Counted from the whole stretch's first letter, positions 5,679 to 53,270 are shown. The stretch is DNA of 61,704 bases, filler included, from 7 parts of 7 records of this genome joined end to end with filler, not necessarily neighbours in it, one strand, 5' to 3'. The notes: generated by a model from the letters alone, not told the origin. Made by a program: numbers and translations.

Positions 5679-5778
5679 NNNNNNNNNNNNNNNNNNNNNN
5701 NNNNNNNNNNNNNNNNNNNNNNTTAATTAATTAANNNNNNNNNNNNNNNNNNNNNNNNNNNNNNNNNNNNNNNNNNNN
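5679..5778. other. Artificial contig spacer
   Basis: N44-TTAATTAATTAA-N44; stops in all six frames; composition changes across it. Confidence 0.99.
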
Positions 5779-7634: not shown

Positions 7635-7641
7635 ATGCCTT

Positions 7642-8820: not shown

Positions 8821-8842
8821 TTTATTCTTTCTTCCTTATTGA

Positions 8843-13120: not shown

Positions 13121-13220
13121 NNNNNNNNNNNNNNNNNNNNNNNNNNNNNNNNNNNNNNNNNNNNTTAATTAATTAANNNNNNNNNNNNNNNNNNNNNNNN
13201 NNNNNNNNNNNNNNNNNNNN
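13121..13220. other. Artificial contig spacer
   Basis: N44-TTAATTAATTAA-N44. Confidence 0.99.
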
Positions 13221-18363: not shown

Positions 18364-18463
18364 NNNNNNNNNNNNNNNNNNNNNNNNNNNNNNNNNNNNN
18401 NNNNNNNTTAATTAATTAANNNNNNNNNNNNNNNNNNNNNNNNNNNNNNNNNNNNNNNNNNNN
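18364..18463. other. Artificial contig spacer
   Basis: N44-TTAATTAATTAA-N44. Confidence 0.99.
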
Positions 18464-26766: not shown

Positions 26767-26866
26767 NNNNNNNNNNNNNNNNNNNNNNNNNNNNNNNNNN
26801 NNNNNNNNNNTTAATTAATTAANNNNNNNNNNNNNNNNNNNNNNNNNNNNNNNNNNNNNNNNNNNN
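26767..26866. other. Artificial contig spacer
   Basis: N44-TTAATTAATTAA-N44. Confidence 0.99.
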
Positions 26867-38275: not shown

Positions 38276-38375
38276 NNNNNNNNNNNNNNNNNNNNNNNNN
38301 NNNNNNNNNNNNNNNNNNNTTAATTAATTAANNNNNNNNNNNNNNNNNNNNNNNNNNNNNNNNNNNNNNNNNNNN
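38276..38375. other. Artificial contig spacer
   Basis: N44-TTAATTAATTAA-N44. Confidence 0.99.
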
Positions 38376-38456
38376 ATGTTTCTTCATTCTTAATCTACCT
38401 CTTCCTCTTTGGTGGCTCTATGGATTGAGTCGCCCTTTTTTTGTCTCTAATACCTA

Positions 38457-38499
38457 TTGACTGTGAAAGGATATAGTAGTATCATAGAACATACATTCG
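38457..38499 (+). promoter_or_regulatory. SigA promoter with a Firmicutes LexA (Cheo) box
   Basis: TTGACT-N17-TATCAT followed at once by AGAACATACATTCG (GAAC-N4-GTTC with one mismatch). Confidence 0.7.
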
Positions 38500-38540
38500 A
38501 ATGTATCAAATGCAACTTCAAGAAGTAGAGGTAAATAGAT

Positions 38541-38759
38541 ATGAACACGGTTGGTTACAGAATTAAAAAGCATAGGATGGGTAATATGCTATCGAGAAGA
38601 GAGCTTGCAGAGAAAGTGGACATTACTCCGGAAGCAGTAAGGAACTATGAGGTAAACAAAAGGCTGCCCCGGATGGGCATCGCTATTAGGTTATCAGATG
38701 TATTGGGTGTAAGTTTAGATGATTTGTTCAGGGATGGTGCAGAGGATGAAGAAAAATGA
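38541..38759 (+). CDS. XRE-family HTH regulator
   Basis: LSRRELAEKVDITPEAVRNYEVNKRLP; GAGGT RBS. Confidence 0.9.
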   Translation: MNTVGYRIKKHRMGNMLSRRELAEKVDITPEAVRNYEVNKRLPRMGIAIRLSDVLGVSLDDLFRDGAEDEEK

Positions 38760-38871
38760 GGGTGAGAGAGAAAAAAGACAAAACATATTGATGAGCAATA
38801 TAAAATACATAATAATTGGTAATGAACGGATTAAAAGTGTGCTATGGAATAATAAAGAGAAGAATGAGTAG
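38746..38871 (+). CDS. Possible 41-aa ORF (MKKNEGERE...NKEKNE)
   Basis: Overlaps the 3' end of the XRE gene and ends at the terminator; weak RBS. Confidence 0.35.
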   Translation: MKKNEGEREKRQNILMSNIKYIIIGNERIKSVLWNNKEKNE

Positions 38872-38893
38872 GGGATTGTTATAATCCCCTTTA
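38870..38893. terminator. Hairpin terminator between the convergent XRE and higA genes
   Basis: AGGGGATT-GTTAT-AATCCCCT followed by a T-rich tract. Confidence 0.65.
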
Positions 38894-38915
38894 TTCTATG
38901 CAAAAGTATAGTTGT

Positions 38916-39965
38916 TTATATATAGTTGAATTGTTCATATCCGATTAATTCATCGTGTTGTAAAAAGCCGACAATAATACATGGTAGTATATTTTGTTTC
39001 TTAGCAAATCCCGTTATGCTTTGTTTTGTAAAAACTTTCTTTGAAGTAAATTCTGCGTAATCATCAAGATTTACAAGTAAACTACGTGCAAAATCATTCG
39101 CTTCTTTTTCTTTTGGTTTAGATTCTTTAGTTTCTTCTTCCATTGAGATTATTGGTTCTTTTGAATCATAATGAAGAAACAGATGTGCTATTTCGTGCAT
39201 GAAGGCAAACCACCGATGTGAGTGACTTTTAAAACGTCCACTTAGGTATATTGTGGGAAGCCCTTTATAAGTGGTGAGTGCACCTCTAACTTTACTATTT
39301 GTTATAGCTTCACAAATGACTAAGTAAATACCTAGTTTATTACATAATCTACGGCAACTATTTAGTGATAGTTCAGTTTCGTGATTGGTAGATAAAAGCT
39401 TGAATTTATCAAAATTCTTTTTTAATTCAGATTTATTATAAGTTTTCTCACCTAATTCTTTGTTTTGAATTTCTATTTCAGTTTCACACAAATTCATCCA
39501 TATTGCAATTGCTTCTTTTTCGCCGCCATCTTCCATGAAGTCTGCGTTTATATTTGCATAAGCAGCTTCAAACTGACTAAACTTACTTATTTTTAGTAAC
39601 TTCAACATTTCTATTGCTTGTTCTACTAGGCTCAAACCTAAACCTTCAAAAACTTCTTTAAATCTAAATCTATTTGCTGTAGCTTTTAAATTGATATTAT
39701 TTAAATCGCCCTTTTCTTTCTCCCTTGCTAAGTATTCCCTATATTTACTTTCATAATTTATCCAATACGAAGCCTCAATACCTGTTAATACTTTTTCAAG
39801 TTTTAATGCAAATTCTACAGTTAAAACGCTTTTATCGTTAAGCACATTAGATATATGTTTTTCTGTCATTCCAGTTCTCTTAGCTAATTCTTTTTGACTA
39901 ATTTTATACTCATCAAGATATTCTTTTATTAAATTTCCTGTTGGTGAAATATATATGTTTTTCAT
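38916..39965 (-). CDS. higA: HigA antitoxin HTH fused to an ImmA/IrrE (M78) metallopeptidase
   Basis: PTGNLIKEYL...SQKELAKRTG...ALKLEKVL...YWINY; FMHEIAH (HExxH) and EKEANDFA. Confidence 0.9.
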   Translation of the reverse strand: MKNIYISPTGNLIKEYLDEYKISQKELAKRTGMTEKHISNVLNDKSVLTVEFALKLEKVLTGIEASYWINYESKYREYLAREKEKGDLNNINLKATANRFRFKEVFEGLGLSLVEQAIEMLKLLKISKFSQFEAAYANINADFMEDGGEKEAIAIWMNLCETEIEIQNKELGEKTYNKSELKKNFDKFKLLSTNHETELSLNSCRRLCNKLGIYLVICEAITNSKVRGALTTYKGLPTIYLSGRFKSHSHRWFAFMHEIAHLFLHYDSKEPIISMEEETKESKPKEKEANDFARSLLVNLDDYAEFTSKKVFTKQSITGFAKKQNILPCIIVGFLQHDELIGYEQFNYI

Positions 39966-39981
39966 ATCTTCACAGCCTTTC

Positions 39982-40296
39982 TTAATGGTAGTCTTCTAAG
40001 TTGATTATTCTTATATCAGTTATAGTTGTTAAGTCGTTAATATTGAAATCGCCAATTGGCTCAATGATAAATCGATGATTTCTTGAGTAATCAACACCCC
40101 AATGATCTTTTAAATCACCTTCTAACTTGTGTCTTCTTGGGGGCGGAATATGAGGTATTTTTTTTAAATTGTCCACATTTTTTAATTCTGAATGCCTATT
40201 AAGTATATTTTTCCAATGTTTAGTATAGTGCTTTTTAATTAGTCTTGGGTCTGATAGTATTTTCTCCAATTTAGTTGATGAGTATTTTATATTCAT
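39982..40296 (-). CDS. higB: HigB/RelE-family toxin
   Basis: MNIKYSSTKLEK...RHKLEGDLKDHWGVD...RFIIEP...IINLEDYH; upstream of higA; start reassigned to 40296. Confidence 0.88.
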   Translation of the reverse strand: MNIKYSSTKLEKILSDPRLIKKHYTKHWKNILNRHSELKNVDNLKKIPHIPPPRRHKLEGDLKDHWGVDYSRNHRFIIEPIGDFNINDLTTITDIRIINLEDYH

Positions 40297-40311
40297 GAAG
40301 CTCCCCCCGTC

Positions 40312-40387
40312 GTTACATATTTTAACATAATTAACCTCATAGGTCAATTTTATATTTGTTTATATATTGTAACATTTTTGTTATAAT
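40312..40387. promoter_or_regulatory. Divergent promoters of higBA and the sce7726-like gene
   Basis: Minus strand: TTGACC(40347-40342)-N17-TAAAAT overlapped by GTTA-N7-TAAC. Plus strand: extended -10 TGTTATAAT inside the palindrome ATTGTAACA-N4-TGTTATAAT (40366-40387). Confidence 0.6.
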
Positions 40388-40414
40388 ATAAATTGAAAGA
40401 TAGGTAGGTACGAG

Positions 40415-41224
40415 ATGAATAATATAAACGACAAAGAGCCAACATTGAGTGATGTGCAAAGGCTAAATGCGGTTTACTCAACAATTGAATTAAAAAAGAA
40501 TTTATATAACAACTTGAATGAAACACTTGATTCAAGATATCTTGATGCCTTATCAGAGTATAATGTTCATCAAATCTATAATCATGTCATATTAAAATAT
40601 TATCCCAATGAAGTAAGCGTAAAATCAACTTTTATCAACCAAGTACTACTAAAAGGGAAGTCACATATTAGTATATTCGAGTTACCTATAGTAAATAGTC
40701 GTGCAGATTTGTGCAAAATAAATGGTGAAAGTGTAGTATATGAGATTAAAACTGATTTAGATAATTTTACCAGGTTATCAAAACAAATCAACGATTACAA
40801 GAAGGTATTTGATAAAGTATATGTTATATGCTCAACAAATAGATTAGAACAAATGAAGAATCACATATCAAAAGATATTGGTATATATACTTATAGAATT
40901 ACTAAAAGTAGTCGCTATATATATAAGCTAGAGAGAAAAGCGCTAAAGAATGATAATTTGGATAACGAAGAGCAATTAAAGGTACTATGGAAAAAAGAAT
41001 TACGTGCCCTAGTAAATAACAGTATTGAATCAAAAGAAGAAATGATTGAATTTTTATTGAATACAATGGATAGAAACCAAATTAACAGCATATTTAAAGA
41101 ACAATTAAAGAAACGTTATCAGAAGAAGTGGGATTTCTTTAAGGAAAATCATGAACAATTACTTGAAATCGATTATCAATGGTTTTATAAAAATACATTC
41201 AATCCGGAATTCATATATCATTGA
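40415..41224 (+). CDS. sce7726-family PD-(D/E)xK nuclease-like protein
   Basis: FELPIVNSRADLCKING...VYEIKTDLDNFTRLSKQINDYKKVFDKVYVI. Confidence 0.82.
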   Translation: MNNINDKEPTLSDVQRLNAVYSTIELKKNLYNNLNETLDSRYLDALSEYNVHQIYNHVILKYYPNEVSVKSTFINQVLLKGKSHISIFELPIVNSRADLCKINGESVVYEIKTDLDNFTRLSKQINDYKKVFDKVYVICSTNRLEQMKNHISKDIGIYTYRITKSSRYIYKLERKALKNDNLDNEEQLKVLWKKELRALVNNSIESKEEMIEFLLNTMDRNQINSIFKEQLKKRYQKKWDFFKENHEQLLEIDYQWFYKNTFNPEFIYH

Positions 41225-42315
41225 TTTAAGTATTTGAATATTTGATGTATATATCGTCTAATACAAATATTTTTCCAAGTAGCCCAACTTCCATATTTAG
41301 GTATAGAGTCTATTTCTTTGTACCCTATACAATCGTTATTGATATCTAAAGTCTCTCTCATATCAAGCACTTTGGGCAATACATATTTGTAGCCCAGTAT
41401 GCCCATTTTTCTATTTTTATGAGTACATACCCAGAAATGGTTCTCGCTATAATCATAAAGTAGTGCAATTGCTGCACCTTCAGAAGGTTCTTTAATTGAA
41501 GGCAATTTATCTCTTATTCCACAGTAATCACCGAAACCGTTAAAAGTGTAATCCTCTATTATTAATCTTGCAGAAGTATCGATTAAATCAGTATACCCTG
41601 CCTCAGGATATTTGTTGTTATATATTTTAACTCGTACCGGAGAATTGAGCAGTATTTTGCATGCTTTTATATCCATATCTTCCAATTCAGACAATTCAGT
41701 AAATTTTGTATCAGGTTTCTGTTCCTGAATATCAAATAATAAAAAATCATTGTCCCTTAAATTGCTTTTTAATATTGTTTCATACTTATCTAAAAATTCT
41801 TCAGTAATTCTTAAAGCAATTTTGGTGTTTTTATTTTGCAAATCAGTAATAAAGGACTTTAACTCGCTCATAGCTAGCTCAAAACCTTTTTTTATTGAAA
41901 TAACCGGTATGAAATTTTGATATTTTGATACTTCATTCAATCTCTTCATGTATAAATCAAGATTATTATTTAGGTTGAATGATAACGCAACTTTATTAAC
42001 ATCTATATCTTTACCATATTTATCAATGGTAAACCTAAAAAAGTCTATAAATGCAAGTTTACTGTCCACTCTTTCGTTTATGCAGTCTAGTGTAACAATA
42101 TCATCTTCTGTGGGGTCTTCTTTTTCTCTTATTCTACGTTTACCGCATTGCTTATAAACATAATCACCAGTTTTTGGATTGATTTTAAAATCTAAATCAT
42201 ACTCATCATTTAATATTTCAATCAGGGGTATAATTGTATCTGAAAAACAATAATTAAGTGCTTTTGCAACTCTCATTTCTTCTTGCCTAGTTTTTAACAT
42301 TGGTACATATATCAT
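41218..42315 (-). CDS. Beta-family (P4 beta / sce7725-like) protein
   Basis: N-terminal MIYVPMLKTRQEE, IIPLIEI, IPVISI, IALRI, GFGDYCG, C-terminal GSWATWKNICIRRYI; start at 42315 after GGAGGT. Confidence 0.78.
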   Translation of the reverse strand: MIYVPMLKTRQEEMRVAKALNYCFSDTIIPLIEILNDEYDLDFKINPKTGDYVYKQCGKRRIREKEDPTEDDIVTLDCINERVDSKLAFIDFFRFTIDKYGKDIDVNKVALSFNLNNNLDLYMKRLNEVSKYQNFIPVISIKKGFELAMSELKSFITDLQNKNTKIALRITEEFLDKYETILKSNLRDNDFLLFDIQEQKPDTKFTELSELEDMDIKACKILLNSPVRVKIYNNKYPEAGYTDLIDTSARLIIEDYTFNGFGDYCGIRDKLPSIKEPSEGAAIALLYDYSENHFWVCTHKNRKMGILGYKYVLPKVLDMRETLDINNDCIGYKEIDSIPKYGSWATWKNICIRRYIHQIFKYLNQ

Positions 42316-42353
42316 CTCTCCCACCTCCATATTTCTTCTTTTGTATTTATATC

Positions 42354-43058
42354 CTAGTACACATTATAGTATTTAGGGTCTAACTCATAAAAATCCCATT
42401 GACCGTGGGTTTCATTGTAACCCACATATTTCTCCTTCATTTCAGCTAATGTCATAAGGTTATCAACACCTGAGTAAACATAAACTATAAATGTCTCTTG
42501 ACCAGTTTTATTACCATTATAAACGTATCTTAAAGTAAATATATAAGGTCTACCAGATTCATCCTCATTAGTTGTAAATCTATACTCATAGTTTGGATCT
42601 TTATCATTCCACCAATCTTCATAATGAAAAACCAGAATTTTTTTAGTAATTGAGTTTTTATTTAACCAAAATGTATTTGCTATTGTATAAGTTCTATCTA
42701 AGTCCTCTAAACTTATTTCTTCCAGCTCTCCTGTAAGACTAAAAATGACTTCCTCTTCTTCGGTATCTGGTAAAATCTTGCCAGTTGCATTATCCTTTAT
42801 AGCTTTTTGTATATGAAGTTTGACCTCAGTTATTTCTTCGTCTTTAAAACTTAGGCAATCCCAGTTTAGAGGGAAAATAATATGATCAGATGGCCAATTC
42901 TTAAATTCTCTAACAAATACTACCATTCTTGGTTCATAAACATTTACTCCAAAGCGTGGAGCAACATATGCTATTGTTACTGATACTATAATTGTAACTA
43001 TTGTTAGTATACATGCAATAAGACCTATTTTTATATCTCGCTTCTCATATATTGACAT
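42354..43058 (-). CDS. Hypothetical protein with an N-terminal membrane anchor
   Basis: Single hydrophobic helix at about aa 11-33, then a soluble domain. Confidence 0.7.
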   Translation of the reverse strand: MSIYEKRDIKIGLIACILTIVTIIVSVTIAYVAPRFGVNVYEPRMVVFVREFKNWPSDHIIFPLNWDCLSFKDEEITEVKLHIQKAIKDNATGKILPDTEEEEVIFSLTGELEEISLEDLDRTYTIANTFWLNKNSITKKILVFHYEDWWNDKDPNYEYRFTTNEDESGRPYIFTLRYVYNGNKTGQETFIVYVYSGVDNLMTLAEMKEKYVGYNETHGQWDFYELDPKYYNVY

Positions 43059-43388
43059 TTTAGTCTTGCTCTTCGGATTACTCCTTATGCTCTTTATATA
43101 GTTTACGAGTTTATAATATTCATTCTTAATAGTTTCACCTCTATATTTCCTATTTTGTATTAATATCCCACCTATATTTCAAAAAAAAATATTATGCCTA
43201 TATTGCTTATTATTTAATTTATATCCCCGCATCTATTACAGCATCTTTTAGTCTTTGAAAATTTTTAGAGTTACTATTCTTCGTTCTAGAATACCCTGAC
43301 AATGATTTCGGGGCAAAATCAGGTAACTTCCTTATTATCTGTTTATACTCTTTTTCAGCATTTTCCATCCCTATATGTTCCTGTACTG

Positions 43389-44280
43389 TTAACGTACTAT
43401 CTCAACAAATAATTCAGTCATATTGCTGTAGATATGTTTCCCTATTTCAATTATATATTCACCATCACCTGAGTACTCAACAATAAAGTAAGTGTCGTAT
43501 ACCGCACCAGAACGAATGTCTATTAGCCAATCGTTTGGATAATCATCATCAAGGTACATGCTGCGGTCTTCGTACTTGATACCGTCTTGTGAGAATACGT
43601 TGATATGAGTGCCCATCCATAAGTTTTGTGTTTTGTCACTGTTATTTTCTATAGTCACAGAAAAACTATTATACTATCTGACTAAACCCAATAATTATCA
43701 CAAGTAGCTACCTCGTAGCCTGTAAAAGTAACAAGAAGGCCATCTACATCAACAGGATAATTCAAAGAGGGCTTAGGGGTAGAAGTAGGCTCTGGTGTTG
43801 ACGTATTTGTGGGCGTAGGTTTAGGTGAGTTGGTTTGAGTAGGTGTAACTTCTTCTTGAATATGCACACCTTCCAATGTTGGGGTTGACTCTATAGTGGT
43901 TTTTTCACACCTGTATAACGAACAACAACAAATATTATTACCACTATAAGACCTGAAAAAATGTAGATACCAATTGGGGGTATATTTGTTAGTTGTTCGT
44001 CAGGATTTAAAACAGAGTCATTCACATTTTCTGAGCCTTGTAAATCTATTCTCTCTTTTTTTGTAATTGCTTCACGCTTCACGTTTTTCGTTGAAAGAAC
44101 TATGTTCAGTGCCATTTAGTTTATGGAAGTTCGCAATATTTTTTGCTCCAAGCATCATAAGTACGAAGCCAGTAAGAAGTATGATTAAAAATATGGCTCC
44201 TATTTAAAAAGCATAATAAAAGAACCTATTATTAAAAGTAGACCAATGTTAGTTTATACTGTTCCATTTTTTACATATTT
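43389..44280 (-). pseudogene. Fragmented membrane-anchored surface protein (TM, P/T linker, DUF4352-like domain)
   Basis: Collinear fragments in different frames; frameshifts at the A6 run (43900-43905) and the T5 run (about 43661-43665), plus in-frame TAG at 43682-43684; upstream limit approximate. Confidence 0.65.
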
Positions 44281-44447
44281 ATTTTTCAATTTACTACATC
44301 TTAATTATTTTTATGTTTAATTACCACTAACTAACTACTGTAATTATTACCAATCAATTTTCCTTGTTCCTAAACTGCCTATCATTTATCCTGTTTTATA
44401 TTTACTGTAGGTCTAAATCCATTTTGCTTCGTTTTTACGCATTGATA

Positions 44448-45911
44448 TTAATCCATAATGCTATCTATTAATAGTCTGCTGTCTTCGAACATCTGAGAAT
44501 AAGTGTATATTGTTTCAAACGCTTTTATTTCTTTTTGAGTTAATTCATAATCCAGCTTGGAGCCATCATCATTAAAAAATCTCATATATGGATTCTCTGC
44601 ATTGAGCACTTTTTCGTAATCGTCATCAAGTAAGTTGAGTTCACATCTTTCAGTTATTCCGTAATCTACTGTTCTGACTACATCATCATAGCTAAAAGAA
44701 TCGTATATGTACTCACTGTCGTTTACATATAACTTAACATTTTCCATAAAGAACCAAGAACTTCTTTTGAAGCCAATCTCAACACTCATGCCCAAGTCGA
44801 AGAATGGTATAAAGTGATTACTGTAGGATATTTCACTTAGCCCTTTAGCGAACAATGTATTATCTTCTTCTGTGAAATTGCTATATCCATACTCCAAATA
44901 TGTGTTTATGTACTCACTCATAACCGTTAGATTCTCTGTTATTACATCCCAATCGTTATTGGGAAGATATTCTTCTAGATACCACCTATTATCAACGACA
45001 AAGCTAATGGCATCTTCAATTTGAATTTGATTGGAGTAAAAAAGTATTCTGATTTCATTATAAGCCCTGAAGCATAACGCATTGTTAAATGCAGTGATAT
45101 TGGTGATGTTGTTTGAACTGATGAACAAATCCATGTCTTCAAAAACTGAATCTATGCCCTCTGATTTAATTAAATCCTCATACTCTTTAGACAAGAGGAA
45201 GTCGCTAAGCCTAACTTCAATATCTGCTTTTGCATTGATAAAACTATATTTGTCAAAGTAGGTGATTATTGTATTAGAATACTTTTCTTTATTATATCGT
45301 GATATTTCGTCGAAATCAGTTTCTAGTTTGCTAATAATCATATTTTCGAACTCTTCAAGTGCAAATTCTTTTAGAAATTCTTCATATTCTTCAAATTCGC
45401 TAAGTTCATCTTCCGCTATATTCCAAAATGATTGTGTGAATAGTGTGAGTTCACCGAAGTTAGTATTTAGTTCGTCTAAAAACTCTTGTTTTAGGCCTTC
45501 TTGCCTCTCTAATTCGATTTCTAATTCGATTTCTTGTCTAGCAGTTTCTCTTGACGCTGAATTATCGTTTACTTCCCCGGTAAGTGACTCGATATAATCA
45601 CCTACTATATAATTGAATGTCGAATCTATATCTTCAAAGTAAGATATAATTGAACTATCTGGTATTTGTATGTCGTCATTGTATGTCTTATACTCAGCGT
45701 CTATATGGCTTATCAGAATATTACGTAATTCCTCTTGCTGCTCTGTTGCAAATGCCTTTTCGTAGTTGTTTTCTAAAATTAGCTCATTTGCAGCATCATA
45801 TTCATATTTAGATAAGTGTGTTGTAATCTCGTTGTATGTTTCTTCGCTTATAGAGCAAGCGGAAAAAACTAGTACGATAGTTAAAAGTAAAATAACATGA
45901 ATTTTTTTCAT
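44448..45911 (-). CDS. Large acidic lipoprotein of unknown function
   Basis: MKKIHVILLLTIVLVFSA-C lipobox; very D/E-rich; start reassigned to 45911. Confidence 0.8.
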   Translation of the reverse strand: MKKIHVILLLTIVLVFSACSISEETYNEITTHLSKYEYDAANELILENNYEKAFATEQQEELRNILISHIDAEYKTYNDDIQIPDSSIISYFEDIDSTFNYIVGDYIESLTGEVNDNSASRETARQEIELEIELERQEGLKQEFLDELNTNFGELTLFTQSFWNIAEDELSEFEEYEEFLKEFALEEFENMIISKLETDFDEISRYNKEKYSNTIITYFDKYSFINAKADIEVRLSDFLLSKEYEDLIKSEGIDSVFEDMDLFISSNNITNITAFNNALCFRAYNEIRILFYSNQIQIEDAISFVVDNRWYLEEYLPNNDWDVITENLTVMSEYINTYLEYGYSNFTEEDNTLFAKGLSEISYSNHFIPFFDLGMSVEIGFKRSSWFFMENVKLYVNDSEYIYDSFSYDDVVRTVDYGITERCELNLLDDDYEKVLNAENPYMRFFNDDGSKLDYELTQKEIKAFETIYTYSQMFEDSRLLIDSIMD

Positions 45912-46123
45912 AATCATCTCTCCATTTTTGTTATTTATATTAATCACATATGCTAGATGTGTAATTTTTACTAATCAATTTTCCTTGTTTCTAAACTCCC
46001 CGTTTTTGCACCTAAACTAGCGGTAATTACCATGTATTTACATTGACATATATTACCTTGGGTTTTATTATACAATTTAATGAAATATTCACATATTAAA
46101 AAATATATATTAAATATATCTAC

Positions 46124-46166
46124 TTGACTACACAACACATAGAGCGTAGTATAGAACATACGTTCT
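46124..46166 (+). promoter_or_regulatory. SigA promoter with a perfect Firmicutes LexA box, pointing into the 3' end of cI
   Basis: TTGACT-N17-TAGTAT then AGAACATACGTTCT (46153-46166). Confidence 0.8.
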
Positions 46167-46196
46167 TTTAATAGAAAAATATAAGGGAGTACGAAT

Positions 46197-46343
46197 ATGA
46201 AGATGAAGAGAGAAGAAGGTACAATTACAATCAATAAATATCGCAACTGCACAAAACAACACAAAACAACTATTCGCCTCTTTCTAGCATTTTATTTATG
46301 GACTTTAAGAAAGCTTTCGCAATGCCCCTTTGGTCAGAACTAA
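46197..46343 (+). CDS. 48-aa SOS-controlled microprotein, candidate antirepressor (absent from the ORF track)
   Basis: AAGGGAG RBS; MKMKREEGTITINKYRNCTKQHKTTIRLFLAFYLWTLRKLSQCPFGQN; overlaps the cI 3' end antisense. Confidence 0.6.
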   Translation: MKMKREEGTITINKYRNCTKQHKTTIRLFLAFYLWTLRKLSQCPFGQN

Positions 46344-46611
46344 GCTCATTATACATTCTAAGAAACTCCTGCTCATCAGGTGTTAAATCACTCTCGTTTG
46401 AGGGTGATTTTTTATTGTCCGAAAGTCCTAAGAGGAAATCTGTGGAGCACTCAAACAAAGACGCTAACTTTTCTAATGTTAATGCATCTGGAATACTCAC
46501 ACCTCGTTCATACGAACTATATGTTTGGCGCTTAACCTTTAAGTAGTCGGCTACATCTTGTTGGCTATAAGGTGTGTTTTTTCGAGCTTTTTTTAAATTT
46601 TCACTTAGCAT
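46270..46611 (-). CDS. CI-like prophage repressor (XRE HTH plus short helical C-terminal domain, no S24 peptidase)
   Basis: SQQDVADYLKVKRQTYSSYERG...STDFLLG; divergent from cro; start is 46611 or 46629. Confidence 0.9.
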   Translation of the reverse strand: MLSENLKKARKNTPYSQQDVADYLKVKRQTYSSYERGVSIPDALTLEKLASLFECSTDFLLGLSDNKKSPSNESDLTPDEQEFLRMYNELSSDQRGIAKAFLKSINKMLERGE

Positions 46612-46635
46612 ATTATTCTCACAATACATTTATTG

Positions 46636-46763
46636 TAGCAAATAATAATTGCTAATACAATATATGAAATAATAAATTGCAATAAAGCAAATATACATTG
46701 CAATTAGTGTTGACAAAGCAATTATAATTTGCTATTATATGAATATAGCAATTTTAAATTGCG
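46636..46763. promoter_or_regulatory. Phage switch operator array (five GCAA-N7-TTGC sites) and lytic promoter
   Basis: Sites at 46636-46654, 46665-46681 (degenerate), 46686-46702, 46717-46734 and 46746-46763; TTGACA(46710)-N17-TATTAT(46733). Confidence 0.85.
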
Positions 46764-46770
46764 GAAAGGA

Positions 46771-46980
46771 GTGATTGTTCTGAGAAACTGGTTAGTGGAG
46801 CAACGTAAGAAATGTGGTCTCTCGCAATCTGAAGTTGCGAAAAAGGTGGGAGTGACTAGGCAGATGGTAAGCGCAATAGAGCGTGGTGAAAATCCGTCAG
46901 TGGACACAGCAAAGAAACTCGGTAAAGCACTTGATGTTGACTGGACAAGATTCTACGATGAAGAGAGAAAAGGGGCGTGA
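46771..46980 (+). CDS. Cro-like XRE regulator
   Basis: LSQSEVAKKVGVTRQMVSAIERGENPSV; start uncertain (GTG 46771 or CTG 46780 after AAGGAG). Confidence 0.88.
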   Translation: MIVLRNWLVEQRKKCGLSQSEVAKKVGVTRQMVSAIERGENPSVDTAKKLGKALDVDWTRFYDEERKGA

Positions 46981-46983
46981 TGG

Positions 46984-47106
46984 ATGCCATATTACAGCGA
47001 AGATGAACAAGAAGCCTTAAACCTATACAGAGAGTTAAAGCATAGAGAGACTGTAATAGCTAAATTGCTTTGCGTGATACTAAACCGAATATTAGAAAGG
47101 AATTAA
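46984..47106 (+). CDS. 40-aa microprotein homologous to the CI C-terminal domain (absent from the ORF track)
   Basis: AAGGGG RBS; MPYYSEDEQEALNLYRELKHRETVIAKLLCVILNRILERN; 15/36 ungapped identities with the CI C-terminus. Confidence 0.78.
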   Translation: MPYYSEDEQEALNLYRELKHRETVIAKLLCVILNRILERN

Positions 47107-47108
47107 TT

Positions 47109-47270
47109 ATGCCAAATGTTGAAGATTTAAAAGTGAATATATCCATGAAAAATTCCAGGAAATTTGAGAGGAAATGCAAGCAAGTTATTTCAGCGGTAAG
47201 CGAACTACAAGAGTGCATTAGTAGTTCTCCAGATGTGAAAAAATTGCTTGCATCATTCTTAGAATTCTAG
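47109..47270 (+). CDS. Small phage hypothetical protein
   Basis: GAAAGGA RBS, then MPNVEDLKV... Confidence 0.55.
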   Translation: MPNVEDLKVNISMKNSRKFERKCKQVISAVSELQECISSSPDVKKLLASFLEF

Positions 47271-47560
47271 TTTTTTTGTGCGTATAAGGTGCCTGCAGTG
47301 CTAAGCATATCTCCCCATGAATCGAACGAAGTCACACTACTAATGTACTCGTCAAAATCTTCATCGGGTATAGCTTTAAAATCTTCCTGTGATTTCACTG
47401 TCCACTTACTGTTATTAAGCAGGTCGTAAAATGAAGAGAACTTTGAGTGCTTTTGCATGAAAGACTTTGTGAAGAGTTCCGAAAACTCAAACTCACCTGA
47501 TAAGCTTTGAATTCTATCGTTGAGTTCTTTTAATACAGAGTCATCAAATTCGAAAGACAT
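47267..47560 (-). CDS. Phage hypothetical protein on the antisense strand of the early lytic operon
   Basis: AAAGGGG RBS; MSFEFDD...ELFTKSFMQKHSKFSSF...FDSWGDML. Confidence 0.7.
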   Translation of the reverse strand: MSFEFDDSVLKELNDRIQSLSGEFEFSELFTKSFMQKHSKFSSFYDLLNNSKWTVKSQEDFKAIPDEDFDEYISSVTSFDSWGDMLSTAGTLYAQKN

Positions 47561-47635
47561 AAATTTCCCCCTTTCTATATTACTTGCCATAAATAGTAAC
47601 ATATATGGAAAATAACGACAAGAAAGGAGAAACAC

Positions 47636-48391
47636 TTGGAACAATTAACCAAGACATTATCTAGCCTAGAAGTGGCTGAAATGGTAGGAAAGCAGCACAA
47701 GGAATTGTTGAGAGACATAAGAACTTATATTTCTCACCTTAACGAGAGCAAAGATGCGCTGGTTGTAGGAGAGCGCAAAATTGCGCTTACCGATTTTTTT
47801 ATTGAAAGTTGCTACAAAACTTTACAAAACAAAAAACTACCATGTTACCTGTTAACCAAAAAAGGTTGTGAACTCGTAGCTAATAAACTAACAGGTGAAA
47901 AGGGAACTAGATTTACTGCAACATATGTTAATAAGTTTAACGAGATGGAACAGCAGAATATTTCAGTAGAACAGTTACTGCAAGACCCTGACACAATCAT
48001 CAGGTTGGCGACTAACTGGAAAGAAGAGAAAACCAAAAGGTTGATGCTGGAAGAAAAGATAGAGCAGGACAAGCCGTATACAGAATTCGGTATCGCTATT
48101 GGTAATGCAAGTGAAGCAGTAAAGATTGGTACATTTGCTAAATCACTCGCTAATGCAGGCATTGACACAGGACAAAATCGACTTTTTAAATGGCTAAGGG
48201 TGAACGGTTACTTAGAAAGCAATAACGAGCCTTACCAAAGGTATGTATCAATGGGATTGTTCAAAATAAAAGTTAATAAAGTGAAACCAGCATATGGCGA
48301 TCCTTTCTTTACTTATACAACATTAATTACAGGTAAAGGACAAAAGTATTTCTATGAAAAGCTGAAAGTAAAAAAGCAGAAAGGAGCATAA
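47636..48391 (+). CDS. Phage antirepressor, Rha N-terminal domain plus ANT/KilAC C-terminal domain
   Basis: LSSLEVAEMVGKQHKELLRDI, YLLTKKGCELVANKLTGEKG; TGQNRLFKWLR...ITGKGQKYF; TTG start after AAAGGAG. Confidence 0.92.
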   Translation: MEQLTKTLSSLEVAEMVGKQHKELLRDIRTYISHLNESKDALVVGERKIALTDFFIESCYKTLQNKKLPCYLLTKKGCELVANKLTGEKGTRFTATYVNKFNEMEQQNISVEQLLQDPDTIIRLATNWKEEKTKRLMLEEKIEQDKPYTEFGIAIGNASEAVKIGTFAKSLANAGIDTGQNRLFKWLRVNGYLESNNEPYQRYVSMGLFKIKVNKVKPAYGDPFFTYTTLITGKGQKYFYEKLKVKKQKGA

Positions 48392-48393
48392 CA

Positions 48394-48624
48394 GTGAAAT
48401 TATCAGTACCAGAAACAGCAAAGATACTTGAATGCTCACCAGACCATGTAAGGCAGAGCATGAAGCAGGGCAATTTGAATATTGGCTCATGGGCGCAGCA
48501 CTCAGGGAGATGCTCATACAATATTCAGTCTGGCGCATTGGCAAGACACATGAATGTGGCAGAGCAGGTAATCATAACAATAGTTTTGAAGATGAGAGAT
48601 GAAAAAAATCTAGAGGTCGCATAA
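48394..48624 (+). CDS. Small excisionase-like HTH protein
   Basis: LSVPETAKILECSPDHVRQSMKQG..IG. Confidence 0.65.
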   Translation: MKLSVPETAKILECSPDHVRQSMKQGNLNIGSWAQHSGRCSYNIQSGALARHMNVAEQVIITIVLKMRDEKNLEVA

Positions 48625-48739
48625 GCAACCTCAAAACAGAAACGAAAAGTGAGAGGGGAGTGATAGGGCAAAAAGTGAGAGTGAATGAGGAATTCAATAG
48701 GCTATACCAATATATTAGCAGAAAGGAGGAAGTGAAAAC

Positions 48740-49306
48740 ATGACACAAACAGCCCTAAATACACCAGTAAGCGGACAATGTATTACAGGTTCTGTGTACA
48801 AGCGAAAAATACATGCTGTAGGTAAGACGATTACTCAGTTTGTTGATGAACTTAATAACAGAAGCTTACCATACTGTGAGCGCAATGTACGAAAAAAGCT
48901 AAGTGACAATGAGCCGGGGGAGCCATCACCAGAAATGGTAGCAATAATGGTTGAAGAACTGGGATTTGATTACGAATTAGCTTATATGTATCTGAGAGAT
49001 AATCCTGTGGCTAAGTTAATATTACCGGAGAAGGTAAGTAAAAAGCCCTTAGCCCAAGTGGCTATAACGCTGATGGTAGTTTCGGATATGATGCAGAGTA
49101 AAAGCAAGATGCTGCTAGAGATAGCTACAGATGGGGTAATCTCGCCAGATGAGGAAGAACAATTTGATGAGTACATGGAAACCATGGATAAAATGATGGC
49201 ATCGTGCCTTGAATTGTTATTTATAGATGGTGTGAAGTACAAAATGAAAAAGAACGGATTACAGATGCCCGGTCACCAAACTAAGCACTGTAATTCCATT
49301 CCTTAA
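48740..49306 (+). CDS. Phage regulatory (CII-like) protein
   Basis: HTH-like N-terminus and LLEIATDGVISPDEEEQF motif; strong RBS. Confidence 0.6.
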   Translation: MTQTALNTPVSGQCITGSVYKRKIHAVGKTITQFVDELNNRSLPYCERNVRKKLSDNEPGEPSPEMVAIMVEELGFDYELAYMYLRDNPVAKLILPEKVSKKPLAQVAITLMVVSDMMQSKSKMLLEIATDGVISPDEEEQFDEYMETMDKMMASCLELLFIDGVKYKMKKNGLQMPGHQTKHCNSIP

Positions 49307-49344
49307 AGACAACCAAATTATATCACGAAAGGGGATATAGCACA

Positions 49345-49518
49345 ATGCCAAAAGAAAAACACTGGAACGGATGCTTTAATTCTAAGGAAAGCAAACATGT
49401 ACCTAAGCATACAAAGACAAGATGTCGCTTTTGTGGTGAATATGGATATGTAGTATGCCCTGAATGTGTGAAAGAAATAAATGCTTCAATTGGAAATTCG
49501 AAGGAAGTGGCTGTATGA
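49345..49518 (+). CDS. 57-aa zinc-ribbon phage protein (absent from the ORF track)
   Basis: AAAGGGG RBS; CRFC...CPEC; ATGA overlap with the next gene. Confidence 0.65.
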   Translation: MPKEKHWNGCFNSKESKHVPKHTKTRCRFCGEYGYVVCPECVKEINASIGNSKEVAV

Positions 49519-49751
49519 GCAAAATTTCAGTTTTCCCCAAATATATCTGGACAGTTGATAACAATTGGACTACTCACCATGAAGTAAAGGAAGTCAAAAT
49601 TGACGAGGACGGCAAGAGAATATTTATATGTAAGTTTGCTGGTAAGGACAGTTTGCTGTTTCCAATTTACGAATCTGTGCAAAAGGTATTCTTTACTGAG
49701 GAGGAAGCAGAAGTGAGGATAAACCCCAATGAAAGGAGTGGGTTCAGGTGA
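49515..49751 (+). CDS. Phage hypothetical protein
   Basis: Start reassigned to MSKIS by ATGA coupling. Confidence 0.6.
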   Translation: MSKISVFPKYIWTVDNNWTTHHEVKEVKIDEDGKRIFICKFAGKDSLLFPIYESVQKVFFTEEEAEVRINPNERSGFR

Positions 49752-49855
49752 GTAATTATACATGCCCTTATTGTGGCTCAAATTACGATACAGTCACAGA
49801 AGTTCATAACTGTGATTGCCAAGAGGATAAAGAAAGTGAGGAAGATGATGAGTGA
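49748..49855 (+). CDS. 35-aa Cys-rich phage protein (absent from the ORF track)
   Basis: GTGA overlap, AAAGGAG RBS; CPYCG...CDC with an acidic tail. Confidence 0.55.
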   Translation: MSNYTCPYCGSNYDTVTEVHNCDCQEDKESEEDDE

Positions 49856-50078
49856 CTTTGACAATTGGCTATATATGCAAGCTGATAAACAATATGATGA
49901 ATCAAACCAAGAACCAGAACTTATCTGCGACGAATGCGGTGAACCAATATATGAATATGACTTGTACTTAGACCTGCCTAACGGCATGAGAGTACACGTA
50001 GATTGTATTAATCCAGAGCATGTGGACGAAGAGTACCTGGCTGAAGATGTGCTGGAAGAGTGTAGGAGGATAGCATGA
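49845..50078 (+). CDS. Phage zinc-finger-like protein
   Basis: ICDECGEPIYE...HVDC; start reassigned to MMSDF. Confidence 0.65.
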   Translation: MMSDFDNWLYMQADKQYDESNQEPELICDECGEPIYEYDLYLDLPNGMRVHVDCINPEHVDEEYLAEDVLEECRRIA

Positions 50079-50905
50079 GTGAAGCTACTATTGATAGCAA
50101 GGAAATGATTATCGTTGAACAGCTGCCAATAATAACTGAAAAGCTGATAAACGTAAGCTTATTAATTGAGGAGAGAGTAAACCATGCTCTTTCCCTCGAT
50201 GTAACGGAAACAACACTGTCAGAAGTGAAGAAAGTACGAGCAGGGTTAAATAAAGACAAAGCCGACTTAGAGAACAGGAGAAAAGACGTAAAAAAGGCGG
50301 TTATGGACCCGTACAGTCAGTTTGAAACAGTATACAAAGACTTGGTTCTGAATAAATTCACTAAAGCAGACACAGAACTCAAATCCAAGATTAGTAATGT
50401 AGAAAACGGTATAAAGAGAAAAAAGCGTGAAAAAGTTGAACAGTATTTCAATGAATATGCTCAAAGTAAGGATATTAATTTTATCAGCTTTACTGATGCT
50501 AAGTGTAATGTAACGCTGTCAGCTTCCGTTAAATCGCTTAAAGAAGGCTGTAAAGACTTCATTGACAGTATATCTGCAGGACTGGAACTGATTGAAACTC
50601 AGGATCACAAAGATGAAATACTTGTTGAGTTTAAGAAAAATCTAAATGCTGCTGTAGCCATTACGACTGTAGTCAATAGATATAAAGCTATTGGAGAAGA
50701 GAAAGCACGCAGGGAAGCAGCTAAGGCTCAAAAGGAACAAAAGAAAGAAGCTGTAAAGAAAGTAGAAGCTATACAAGCAGAGACAGTGCCGGTAGTAGAT
50801 GATTCACAGGAAATTGTGATACTAAATTTAAGGGTCAAAGCAACCAAGGAAAAACTTAGGGCATTAAAGACATTTTTATTACAAGGAGGATATGAAATTG
50901 AGTAA
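50075..50905 (+). CDS. DUF1351-family phage protein
   Basis: EQLPIITEKL...VKKVRAGLNK...ENRRKDVKKAVMDPY; usual position upstream of the recombinase. Confidence 0.8.
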   Translation: MSEATIDSKEMIIVEQLPIITEKLINVSLLIEERVNHALSLDVTETTLSEVKKVRAGLNKDKADLENRRKDVKKAVMDPYSQFETVYKDLVLNKFTKADTELKSKISNVENGIKRKKREKVEQYFNEYAQSKDINFISFTDAKCNVTLSASVKSLKEGCKDFIDSISAGLELIETQDHKDEILVEFKKNLNAAVAITTVVNRYKAIGEEKARREAAKAQKEQKKEAVKKVEAIQAETVPVVDDSQEIVILNLRVKATKEKLRALKTFLLQGGYEIE

Positions 50906-51584
50906 TGAAGTAGCTGTTGTTTACAGTATAGGTGATTCAGAAATTAAGCTAACACCGAGTATAGTACAAAATTACATAGTAGGCTCAAATGCAGAAATAA
51001 GCATGCCTGAGTTTAAGATGTTTACCGAGCTATGTAAGGTTAGAAAATTAAATCCATTTCTGAAAGAAGCATACTGCATCAAATACGGCAATGAACCAGC
51101 ACAGGTAGTAGTTGGTAAAGATGTTTTCGTCAAGAGGGCTGTATTGCATCCAGATTACGATGGTAAGGAGTCAGGGCTAATTGTAAAGAACGATAAGGGC
51201 AAGATAGAAGAGCGACAAGGGTGCTTCTATTTAGATGATGAAGAGATAGTAGGTGCATGGGCTAGAGTGTTCAGAAAGAGCTGGGAGCATCCTGAATATG
51301 TAAGTGTTGCCTTTGATGAGGTTGCAAAGCGTAAGAAAAGCGGTGAACTAAACAGTAACTGGCTAAGACAGGGGGCAACTATGGTTGTAAAAGTTGCAAC
51401 AGTTAGAGCACTTAGAGAATCTTTTGTTGATGATTTAGGCGGTATGTATGTCGAGGAAGAGTTTACACAGGTTGATAATTCCATAGTAGATATTACTCCT
51501 TCACAAGACCCTGTATTCACTGAACCAATACCACCTCAGAACGACTTCACAGACAACGATCAGGTAACTCTAGATGATTTATGA
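50892..51584 (+). CDS. bet: Phage recombination protein Bet (RecT/Red-beta family)
   Basis: LCKVRKLNPFLKEAYCIKYG...VGAWARVFRK...W....ATMVVKVATVRALRESF...GMY. Confidence 0.9.
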   Translation: MKLSNEVAVVYSIGDSEIKLTPSIVQNYIVGSNAEISMPEFKMFTELCKVRKLNPFLKEAYCIKYGNEPAQVVVGKDVFVKRAVLHPDYDGKESGLIVKNDKGKIEERQGCFYLDDEEIVGAWARVFRKSWEHPEYVSVAFDEVAKRKKSGELNSNWLRQGATMVVKVATVRALRESFVDDLGGMYVEEEFTQVDNSIVDITPSQDPVFTEPIPPQNDFTDNDQVTLDDL

Positions 51585-52215
51585 TGTCATAGCTTCATCC
51601 AGTTATGGTAATGCTACGGTCATCGAGAATACAGTTCTAATAGACTGTGGTATGCCGTACAAAGCTATATCAAAATATGTGGACAGGCTAAAAATAGTTT
51701 TGCTTACCCATAGTCATAAAGATCATTTTAATAAGAAAACAATAGCTAGGCTATCAAGACAAAGACCTATGCTGAGATTTGGCTGCGGTAAATGGCTTGT
51801 ACTTCATTTGCTGGATTGCGGAGTATCAAAAGCCAATATTGATGTCTATGATATGGATGTTTGCTATAACTATAAATCATTAAAAATCATTGCATTTAAG
51901 TTATTTCATAACGTTCCAAACTGTGGATATAAGCTGATGATTAACCATCAAAAGGCTATCTACGCAACAGACACTAACAGGATAGAAACCACAGCTAAGA
52001 ACTATGATTTGTACTTAATTGAAGCTAACTATGGCGATAAGGAAATCCAGCAGAGAATAAGAAATAAACGCTTTCAGCCATATATATATGAGCTTGGTGT
52101 GCTGAAAAACCACTTGTCAGAATCAAAGGCATTTGACTTTATTATGAGTAATGCAGGTCCAAATAGTAGGTACAGGCTTATGCATCAGCATGCAGAGAGA
52201 AAGAAGGCGAATTAA
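51574..52215 (+). CDS. MBL-fold metallo-hydrolase, putative phage exonuclease partner
   Basis: ASSSYGN, LIDCG, THSHKDH, YATDT, IEANY, NHLS. Confidence 0.88.
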   Translation: MIYDVIASSSYGNATVIENTVLIDCGMPYKAISKYVDRLKIVLLTHSHKDHFNKKTIARLSRQRPMLRFGCGKWLVLHLLDCGVSKANIDVYDMDVCYNYKSLKIIAFKLFHNVPNCGYKLMINHQKAIYATDTNRIETTAKNYDLYLIEANYGDKEIQQRIRNKRFQPYIYELGVLKNHLSESKAFDFIMSNAGPNSRYRLMHQHAERKKAN

Positions 52216-52490
52216 TGAAGTCGATTATACAAGATGATAAAGCCTGCTATATAACAGGCTCTACAGACAACTTACATGAACATCATATTTTTGGTGGCAG
52301 TAATCGTAAATGGAGTGAAAAATTCGGTTTGAAGGTATGGCTTAGAGCAGACTGGCACAATATGTCTGACTATGGAGTACATTTCAATAAAAATTTTGAC
52401 AGACAACTTAAGAAAACAGGGCAGATGTTTTTTGAAAAAACATATTCACATGAAGAATTTATGCAGTATTTCAGGAGGAACTATCTATGA
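52215..52490 (+). CDS. Small HNH-like phage protein
   Basis: CYITG...HEHHIFGGSNRKWSEKFGLKVWL...H...GVH. Confidence 0.7.
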   Translation: MKSIIQDDKACYITGSTDNLHEHHIFGGSNRKWSEKFGLKVWLRADWHNMSDYGVHFNKNFDRQLKKTGQMFFEKTYSHEEFMQYFRRNYL

Positions 52491-52861
52491 CACAAGCATC
52501 AAGTGAGTTTAAAGAAGTTAAGAAACTAGAGGGCAGTCCTTTTCAGATAGCGTGTGAAGAAGATTGCAAGATATATTCAAGAATGCTTGATGTATATATG
52601 GGACTGCAAGGTGATACTGTAAATGCTGCACAGGCGAATAATATCGCAAATACAGCTCTTGTACTTGCTTCCAGATGGTCAGATATTTGTTCTTACTCGA
52701 AAAGCATAAGCCTGAGATTTGGGTTTGGAAAGTCTGATTTTAGTATGTGGGCACATGAACGCTATTCCGTGCTAAAGGATATCCATATACATGCCAGAAT
52801 GATATGGAGTAAAGCGGAGGACGAATACAGGGAAACCATGAAATATGGCGGACAGACTTAG
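52487..52861 (+). CDS. Phage hypothetical protein
   Basis: ATGA-coupled ORF in the early operon. Confidence 0.65.
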   Translation: MTQASSEFKEVKKLEGSPFQIACEEDCKIYSRMLDVYMGLQGDTVNAAQANNIANTALVLASRWSDICSYSKSISLRFGFGKSDFSMWAHERYSVLKDIHIHARMIWSKAEDEYRETMKYGGQT

Positions 52862-52867
52862 AGAGGT

Positions 52868-53170
52868 ATGGATATGAATAACAACAACTACTATACAATC
52901 CAAGGCTGGATGAGGAATATGCTCCAATTAAAGGGGAATGAGTTAATGCTTTTTGCATTGATATATGGATTTTCACAAGATGGAGAAACGGTATTCAATG
53001 GAAGCTTAACATATATGGAAAAAGCAATAGGAGCAACAAGACCTACTGTTGTTAAGACACTAAACGCATTAGTAGAGAAAGGACTGATTACACGAATCAG
53101 CAGTAAAAAAGGTAATAAATACTTTACTAGTAAAGAAACTAAACTAGTTAAAAATCTTTCAGAAACTAGT
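52868..53170 (+). CDS. Phage replication initiator (N-terminal wHTH), 3'-truncated
   Basis: NYYTIQGWM...LKGNELMLFALIYGFSQDGE..FNGSL.Y. Confidence 0.8.
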
Positions 53171-53270
53171 NNNNNNNNNNNNNNNNNNNNNNNNNNNNNN
53201 NNNNNNNNNNNNNNTTAATTAATTAANNNNNNNNNNNNNNNNNNNNNNNNNNNNNNNNNNNNNNNNNNNN
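53171..53270. other. Artificial contig spacer
   Basis: N44-TTAATTAATTAA-N44. Confidence 0.99.

Follow-up and report, generated by a model that had tools for sequence, protein, structure and literature searches.

The window, i.e., the whole stretch of 61,704 nucleotides analyzed here, carries at positions 38916 to 42315 a cassette of four genes. They code for a fusion of a HigA-type helix-turn-helix (HTH) domain with a metallopeptidase (gene A), a small HigB-fold protein (gene B), a nuclease of the sce7726 family (gene C) and a beta protein (gene D). In our view these genes probably constitute one conserved phage-defence unit of the beta/TIM-B class, which would be carried as lysogeny-side cargo by a temperate Firmicutes phage. 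Judged by its sequence the cassette is a hybrid of two systems: it unites the components of PD-lambda-2 from Escherichia coli with the convergent cII-type nuclease of P4 gop-beta-cII. One lineage of a larger family of modular make-up has the four genes as an obligate set. The features of the cassette are the following:

38916-39965, minus strand: gene A, HigA-type HTH fused to an ImmA/IrrE (M78) metallopeptidase, 349 amino acids
39982-40296, minus strand: gene B, HigB/RelE-fold protein, 104 amino acids, start ATG at 40296
40297-40414: divergent control region, 118 bp between the starts of B and C
40415-41224, plus strand: gene C, sce7726/P4 cII-type PD-(D/E)xK nuclease with helical N- and C-terminal extensions, 269 amino acids
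41218-41224: stop-codon overlap of C and D, 7 bp tail-to-tail, TCATTGA
41218-42315, minus strand: gene D, beta/TIM-B protein (PF14350), 365 amino acids, start ATG at 42315

Identity of the four proteins

The initial annotation of this DNA had named the four genes, their tail-to-tail overlap of 7 bp and the divergent region of 118 bp. All of this stands. The identities are now based on family profiles for A, C and D and on a profile together with a predicted fold for B. When PADLOC was run on each gene, A, C and D were matched; B was not.

Both domains of gene A are recognized by Pfam (HTH_3 1.2e-10, Peptidase_M78 2.4e-9), and the PADLOC profile PD-Lambda-2_B is matched at 8.2e-33 over positions 64-383 of 402. 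In profile searches the N-terminus, i.e., the first 90 residues, resembles solved HigA antitoxins (1e-9 to 1e-5). The antitoxin model TIGR02607 scores 47.4 bits at a cut-off of 47.7, and the protein is a fusion of 349 amino acids and not a free antitoxin. The peptidase motif is intact: all 22 sequences share H257-E258-x-x-H261 and E286.

Gene B required a decision about its start. The open reading frame (ORF) extends from 39982 to 40347 on the minus strand, yet the TTG start at 40347 is used by no homologue. Because all 21 homologues are 103 to 105 amino acids long, the ATG at 40296 was accepted as the start. Single-sequence searches in Pfam, PADLOC, NCBIfam and PHROGs yielded nothing significant; the Pfam HigB match is weak and sub-threshold (E 0.02). 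A profile built from 22 members of the B family retrieves HigB from P. vulgaris (4mct, E 1.4e-3), and the five best matches are all HigB. The predicted structure has a pLDDT of 91.7. Its best match is ribosome-bound HigB (4w4g) with TM-scores of 0.71/0.79 and a root-mean-square deviation of 2.7. The family profile and the fold, and these two lines only, confirm that gene B has a predicted HigB fold. R55-H56-K57 and the C-terminal D102-Y103-H104 are invariant. We take these residues to be the equivalents of the catalytic H54, D90, Y91 and H92 of HigB; titles of PDB entries which name HigB Y91A and delta-H92 variants are in line with this assumption.

Gene C is a member of the sce7726 family (NF033832, 2.8e-42; 144.7 bits at a cut-off of 70 in NCBIfam). 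It also matches the PADLOC model 'cll' (1.9e-22) and P4 cII (E 1e-9). Its sequence profile found no solved relative, hence a fold search was needed. The predicted structure (pLDDT 91) displays a PD-(D/E)xK core with matches to 3dnx (Z 11.5, residues 61-269), PaqCI (Z 10.1, residues 63-253) and NucS (Z 8.9, residues 65-168). All 23 sequences have the corresponding motif residues E89, D98 and E110-x-K112.

The ORF of gene D covers 41218-42330 on the minus strand; the ATG at 42315, which is positioned behind the ribosome-binding site GGAGGTG, was taken as the start. The Pfam model Beta_protein is matched above its cut-off and over almost its full length (6.3e-10, positions 1-338 of 342). All 27 members of the D clade match the PADLOC model PD-Lambda-2_C (best 2e-7), and 9 of the 27 match the P4 beta model. 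An alignment of 27 sequences has 38 invariant positions, many of them polar; the acidic D268 and D274 are among the invariant residues. The sequence profile of gene D found no solved relative, a tblastn search against phage records gave no match, P4 beta included, and a search of the Atlas returned beta-family clusters without a model. In relatives the gap between the tails of C and D ranges from -15 to +69 bp, apart from a single insertion.

Structure modeling supports a binding of nuclease C by beta. The modeled D-C complex reached an interface score (ipSAE) of 0.61 in three runs (0.60-0.62); the best of three controls reached 0.00. In calibration the mark for this score was reached by 51 of 78 solved complexes and by 2 of 108 mismatched pairs. 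At least 90% of the contacts agree between runs, and the pLDDT of the partners is at least 87. On the side of C the predicted interface consists of residues 22-29 and 259-266, i.e., of the helical extensions; on the side of D of residues 101-122. It takes in the conserved C-terminal DYQWF..KN stretch of C.

Linkage, gene order and control DNA

The initial annotation had regarded the four genes as one cassette, which calls for a count of their co-occurrence. A first sampling proceeded from gene D with one genome per species. It comprised 22 loci, Firmicutes by record title except for one metagenome-assembled genome labelled Bacteroidales. Genes C and B adjoin D in 22 of 22 loci and gene A in 21; the remaining locus (L008) ends inside B at the edge of a contig. 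The gene order of the window prevails in 21 of 22, counting L008, which is partial, and L005, which has an insertion; L017 has the order C B A D. The insertion in L005 (Lachnospiraceae; 7245-9043) is an ISL3-family transposase in two ORFs between beta and nuclease, and the two genes are 2070 bp apart.

A second sampling proceeded from gene B in metagenomes and yielded 80 loci, of which 32 were assessable, i.e., had at least 2.2 kb on the left and at least 3.1 kb on the right. All four genes are present in 51 of the 80 loci and in 31 of the 32 assessable ones. The most frequent order is B A D with a convergent C (31 of the 51 loci), followed by that of the window (19); a single locus (L126) has C D' B A, the prime marking the inverted gene. 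Within the lineage a co-occurrence of 22/22 and 31/32 is far beyond chance. Sampling of phage contigs with the alignment of A added little: it gave only four loci, two of them already known.

Altogether four gene orders were seen: D C' B A as in the window, B A D C', C B A D and C D' B A. The four genes stay linked through at least three rearrangements. This linkage persists in loci whose proteins share as little as about 40% identity, in Clostridia as well as in Bacilli, and the pairwise identities of the four proteins correlate with r 0.92-0.96. The flanks differ completely between loci; they comprise integrases, lysis genes, insertion sequence (IS) elements, other defence-type genes and housekeeping genes. 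In a concatenated tree the two main gene orders correspond to two clades with 32 and 22 unique loci, and the window belongs to the first.

The DNA between B and C is a further conserved element of the cassette. It contains, in back-to-back arrangement, the two promoter-like sites that score best in the stretch, both at 10 of 12:

40347-40319, minus strand: predicted higB promoter, TTGACC-17-TAAAAT
40331-40347: operator-like palindrome, TTGACC-N5-GGTTAA on the higB strand, overlapping the -35 element of the predicted higB promoter
40359-40387, plus strand: predicted promoter of C, TTTATA-17-TATAAT with TG

The intergenic regions of the genome loci are otherwise divergent. The palindrome is common to 17 of the 22 when searched as a regular expression and to 19-20 of the 22 by k-mer count. 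In 47 of 71 metagenome loci, which include both gene orders, it is located 44-68 bp upstream of B. It is a rare sequence, with 73 occurrences, both strands counted, in 504 kb of metagenome loci. The extended -10 element of C (TGnTAnAAT) is found in 14 of 22 intergenic regions, and its distance from the palindrome is exactly 48 nt in 10 of the 11 loci which have both. We infer that the HigA-type HTH of gene A would bind this palindrome and autoregulate the higB-A operon.

Kinship with known systems

Statements about the papers and preprints cited in this section draw on parts of their text. PD-lambda-2 from E. coli ECOR42 consists of a HigB-like protein, a HigA-HTH/peptidase and a third protein related to P4, and acts by abortive infection (Vassallo et al., 2022, PMC9519451). 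In this system the HTH-peptidase is toxic and HigB rescues; the beta-like third gene is required for defence (PMC9519451). The composition given in the initial annotation agrees with this description. The cassette resembles PD-lambda-2 in its HigB-like small protein, its fusion of a HigA-type HTH with an ImmA/IrrE peptidase and its beta-like protein. The order HigB, HTH-peptidase, beta is that of our sister clade, where a convergent nuclease is added. The window differs: its order is beta, inverted nuclease, HigB, HTH-peptidase, and the three-gene order is not found in it. Further differences are the fourth, obligately linked cII-type nuclease gene and the host, which is a Firmicute for the family of the cassette and E. 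coli for PD-lambda-2.

The second relative is gop-beta-cII of P4, which protects against lambda and P1 (Rousset et al., 2022, PMC9122126) and is also credited to Ghisotti (1990), as cited. P4 beta neutralises the Gop toxin, not a nuclease (PMC9122126), and a phage accessory gene is reported to trigger toxicity of gop-beta-cII (2023 preprint). P4 cII is named a sce7726 family protein in RefSeq, and beta and cII are convergent with a gap of 27 bp. Thus, a beta gene with a convergent, nearly abutting cII/sce7726-type gene is common to P4 and the cassette, as is the location as a cargo of a temperate mobile element beside the integration/immunity region. Unlike P4, none of the six proteins of the cassette region scanned with PADLOC matches gop. 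The HigB/HTH-M78 pair takes the place of Gop, and the gene directly upstream of D, where P4 has Gop, codes for an unrelated membrane protein of 234 amino acids. P4 beta is distant from gene D; the D profile scores it at 2.8e-5.

The initial annotation had suggested a Firmicutes variant which joins the PD-lambda-2 module with a sce7725/sce7726 module and has the nuclease inserted in opposite orientation. A PD-lambda-2-like set with an inverted nuclease is indeed what we see. A separate sce7725 partner is missing and beta fills this role. For the convergent pair of beta and nuclease, P4 beta/cII is the nearest precedent. Gene C is a bona fide sce7726 protein as in the sce7725/sce7726 pairs. Gene D, however, is not a member of sce7725 (17.4 bits at a cut-off of 60, NF033831), and the genes of sce7725 pairs point in one direction, those of beta pairs towards each other. 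From sequence comparison beta and sce7725 are probably remote homologues (hhalign 86%, E 5e-6, over 75 columns only).

A third sampling, which proceeded from gene C in phage contigs, comprised 25 loci. Apart from those with all four genes, four have a convergent beta only (L027-L030), five have a sce7725 neighbour, and the rest have neither. The co-occurrence of sce7725 and sce7726 named in the initial annotation is observed in 5 of 25 loci. RES proteins, said to be frequent companions, were encountered in two, once with sce7725 and once in a further locus. In L045 (4602-7626) sce7726, sce7725 and a RES-domain protein stand in a row, and in L041 (957-3842) sce7726 occurs with RES. In L033 (3286-4275) and near-identical phage contigs an ORF upstream of a lone sce7726-type gene matches the Pfam ATLF metallopeptidase domain family at 3.9e-12.

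The other half of the cassette has relatives as well. Two-gene pairs of HigB and HigA-M78 ('Xre-peptidase') have a small RelE/HigB-type gene directly upstream of a full-length HTH-M78 fusion, as in the window; unlike the cassette they are devoid of beta and nuclease. Such pairs are found on plasmids of Cyanobacteria, Bacteroidota and Spirochaetes and in one of our metagenome loci (L128). In three of four distant HTH-M78 regions a small gene lies just upstream of the fusion, and two of these are annotated as killer-suppression or RelE/ParE-type. In the Pantoea plasmid L136 and the Leptospira plasmid L137 convergent hypothetical genes and a thymidylate synthase gene come after the distant, full-length HTH-M78 fusion, which may be a different recurrent neighbourhood. 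The B. thuringiensis plasmid CP020005 (L134, 2692-6769) has the convergent beta/sce7726 core, but its divergent position is occupied by a 162-amino acid protein and a Ser/Thr kinase. In the window this position belongs to HigB and HTH-M78, and the difference looks like a swap of the effector module.

The cassette has been anticipated in outline by a recent preprint, in which its building blocks are already described (bioRxiv 10.64898/2026.10.19.760177, October 2026). There, beta is renamed TIM-B and related to deazaguanine transglycosylases including the DNA insertase DpdA, a transfer of nucleobases is predicted, and a parallel is drawn to DdrO-IrrE. As partners of PF14350 proteins the preprint lists a HigB RNase, an HTH-metallopeptidase between effector and TIM-B, and a convergent overlapping restriction endonuclease with helical extensions. 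All four components of the window fit this description. The four-gene combination, the inverted order, the operator and the contact between TIM-B and nuclease are not spelled out in its text sections, and in these the name PD-lambda-2 occurs 0 times. In the literature on sce7726, sce7725 and PF14350 the four-gene set is not described in the titles or abstracts found, which belong to genome reports and to the TIM-B preprint. The set fully matches neither PD-lambda-2 nor P4 gop-beta-cII, and the preprint, as far as its text sections go, is the place where the components are listed together.

Prophage setting, proposed mechanism and rival readings

The window consists of separate contigs joined by six linkers; the guanine-plus-cytosine (GC) content of the contigs lies between 0.28 and 0.64. 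Adjacency across a linker is therefore meaningless; only the genes inside 38376-53170 are true neighbours of the cassette. This contig of 14.8 kb has a GC content of 0.28-0.39 compared with 0.55-0.63 in the neighbouring contigs. The contigs of the window, the one of low GC included, may come from different organisms. According to PHROG scans of its ORFs the contig of the cassette is the early region of a temperate phage:

5679-5778, 13121-13220, 18364-18463, 26767-26866, 38276-38375 and 53171-53270: linkers, N44-TTAATTAATTAA-N44
38870-38890: bidirectional terminator-like hairpin just downstream of gene A, between A and a small XRE gene
46270-46629, minus strand: cI-like repressor (PHROG)
46729-46980, plus strand: cro-like gene (PHROG)
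47636-48391: Ant (PHROG)
50892-51584: RecT (PHROG)

A metal-dependent hydrolase and a replication initiator, which is cut by the end of the contig, also belong to this early region by PHROG. The designation as a prophage accessory region in the initial annotation was fair because these contig neighbours are early genes of a temperate phage, with the proviso that it applies to this contig only. The cassette sits on the repressor side of the early region, which is the usual place of prophage cargo genes.

Two direct neighbours were considered as parts of the system. At 42354-43058 (minus strand), 38 bp upstream of beta, a protein of 234 amino acids with an N-terminal membrane helix is encoded; Pfam, PADLOC, NCBIfam and PHROGs gave no family match for it, and it may be co-transcribed with beta. 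At 38541-38759 (plus strand) a gene for a 72-amino acid XRE/RstR-like HTH protein is convergent with gene A; the contig ends 165 bp upstream of it. Both candidates were dropped, as homologues of either are absent from all 22 genome loci. The interval which separates the cassette from the cI-like repressor (43219-46264, minus strand) holds a series of ORFs nearly without family matches, i.e., a protein of 499 amino acids at 44448-45947 and several of 49-97 amino acids. They are unexplained cargo.

For a four-gene defence unit the best-supported reading is an abortive-infection system with two effectors, and its mechanism can be proposed along the following lines. In an uninfected lysogen the HTH of A would occupy the palindrome over the -35 element of the higB promoter and repress the higB-A operon. 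A and B would neutralise each other as a toxin-antitoxin-like pair. Beta would hold nuclease C inactive by direct contact with the helical extensions at both termini of the latter, and convergent transcription perhaps adds to the restraint of C. As in PD-lambda-2, beta would also be needed for activation. A cue from an infecting phage would disturb beta, activate the M78 peptidase, or both. Two effectors would be set free, B as a ribosome-dependent mRNA endonuclease and C as a DNA nuclease. The infected cell would then stop growing or die before the phage cycle is completed, i.e., by abortive infection.

A more specific version is possible, yet we regard it as tentative. Beta could be a hub which clamps the nuclease via its extensions and at the same time licenses the HigB/HigA-M78 pair, so that one sensor would release an mRNA endonuclease as well as a DNase. 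Occupancy by the repressor together with convergent transcription would act as a switch between the two effectors. The order of the window would put the nuclease gene antisense inside a beta-to-higB transcription unit, and the promoter of C would be locked at a fixed distance of 48 nt from the HigA operator.

A number of observations speak against a single four-gene unit and have to be weighed. The modules are separable. The one assessable metagenome locus which is an exception (L128) contains B and A only, between tRNA synthetase and subtilase genes. Distant HTH-M78 plasmid loci have no annotated beta or nuclease in 4 of 4 cases viewed. Beta and nuclease occur without B and A in the four beta-only phage loci, in an E. 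coli plasmid and in P4 itself. In the phage loci sampled by gene C all four genes are together in only 3 of 25. Each main gene order is one clade, hence the linkage reflects few independent events, and the correlations of protein identities are inflated because of shared descent. The likeness to PD-lambda-2 is imperfect too. None of 22 members of the B family matches PD-Lambda-2_A or any other PADLOC model (E up to 1), and gene D of the window itself scores weakly on the PADLOC models for beta and PD-Lambda-2_C (3e-4 and 1.1e-3). The cloned PD-lambda-2 fragment had a flank of less than 400 bp (Tables S1/S2 of PMC9519451), which leaves no room for a full cII-type gene; PD-lambda-2 thus works without one. 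Since the toxic partner in PD-lambda-2 is the HTH-peptidase, which HigB rescues, the roles of A and B in the window may be reversed. Finally, 7 of 44 blind neighbouring gene pairs pass the same complex test, and the D-C model, which was made without the family alignments, has a small interface of about 32 contacts.

The separate occurrence of each pair and the confinement of each gene order to a single clade are what one would expect of two independent modules, i.e., of a HigB/HigA-M78 toxin-antitoxin pair which stabilizes the prophage and a separate beta/cII pair, kept together solely by descent in a mobile island. We consider this unlikely. Within the clades the linkage is 31 of 32 and 22 of 22, it extends to about 40% identity and over Clostridia and Bacilli, and it survives at least three rearrangements and the IS insertion in L005 while the flanks turn over. 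In addition, the defence by PD-lambda-2 requires the beta-like gene together with the HigB/HTH-peptidase pair, as far as the published parts cited above go.

Less probable still is an arrangement akin to restriction-modification. Beta, as a nucleobase-exchange enzyme, would mark host nucleic acid, the cII-type nuclease would cut unmarked DNA, and HigB/HTH-M78 would be a controller or a back-up. Many restriction-modification pairs have a convergent orientation. Gene D has many invariant polar residues, and beta or sce7725 recurs next to sce7726-type nucleases in 12 of the 25 phage loci (3 four-gene, 4 beta-only, 5 sce7725). The relation of TIM-B to transglycosylases and DpdA and the nucleobase transfer predicted in the preprint would suit this arrangement as well. 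However, genes for deazapurine synthesis were not found among the ORFs of the contig, P4 beta is reported to neutralise Gop and not a nuclease, and the complex model favours a direct protein contact of D and C.

M78 peptidases of the ImmA/IrrE type cleave repressors in mobile elements. A role of the cassette in the life cycle of its own phage, with A as an ImmA-like anti-repressor protease in the lysogeny switch or in prophage addiction and not in defence against other phages, would agree with the position beside the cI/cro/Ant region and with the DdrO-IrrE parallel in the TIM-B preprint, yet it is the least credible reading, since the phage has cI-like and cro-like genes of its own, the conserved operator sits at the promoter of the cassette itself, and the cassette is found beside housekeeping genes in L002, L005 and L021 and beside Mrr, SIR2 or Schlafen-type genes elsewhere.

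A single four-gene defence unit probably remains the best description, and as such the cassette bears on two validated defences. PD-lambda-2 contains a beta-like protein and P4 gop-beta-cII beta itself. In the Firmicutes family described here, parts of both are obligately united. Experiments could start from its conserved operator, from the intact catalytic motifs of A, B and C, from the predicted interface between beta and nuclease, and from a comparison of the two natural gene orders. With the present PADLOC models the system would be missed, as they do not recognize the HigB component and the beta of the window scores weakly. The defence content of prophages in Clostridia and Bacilli is therefore probably undercounted.

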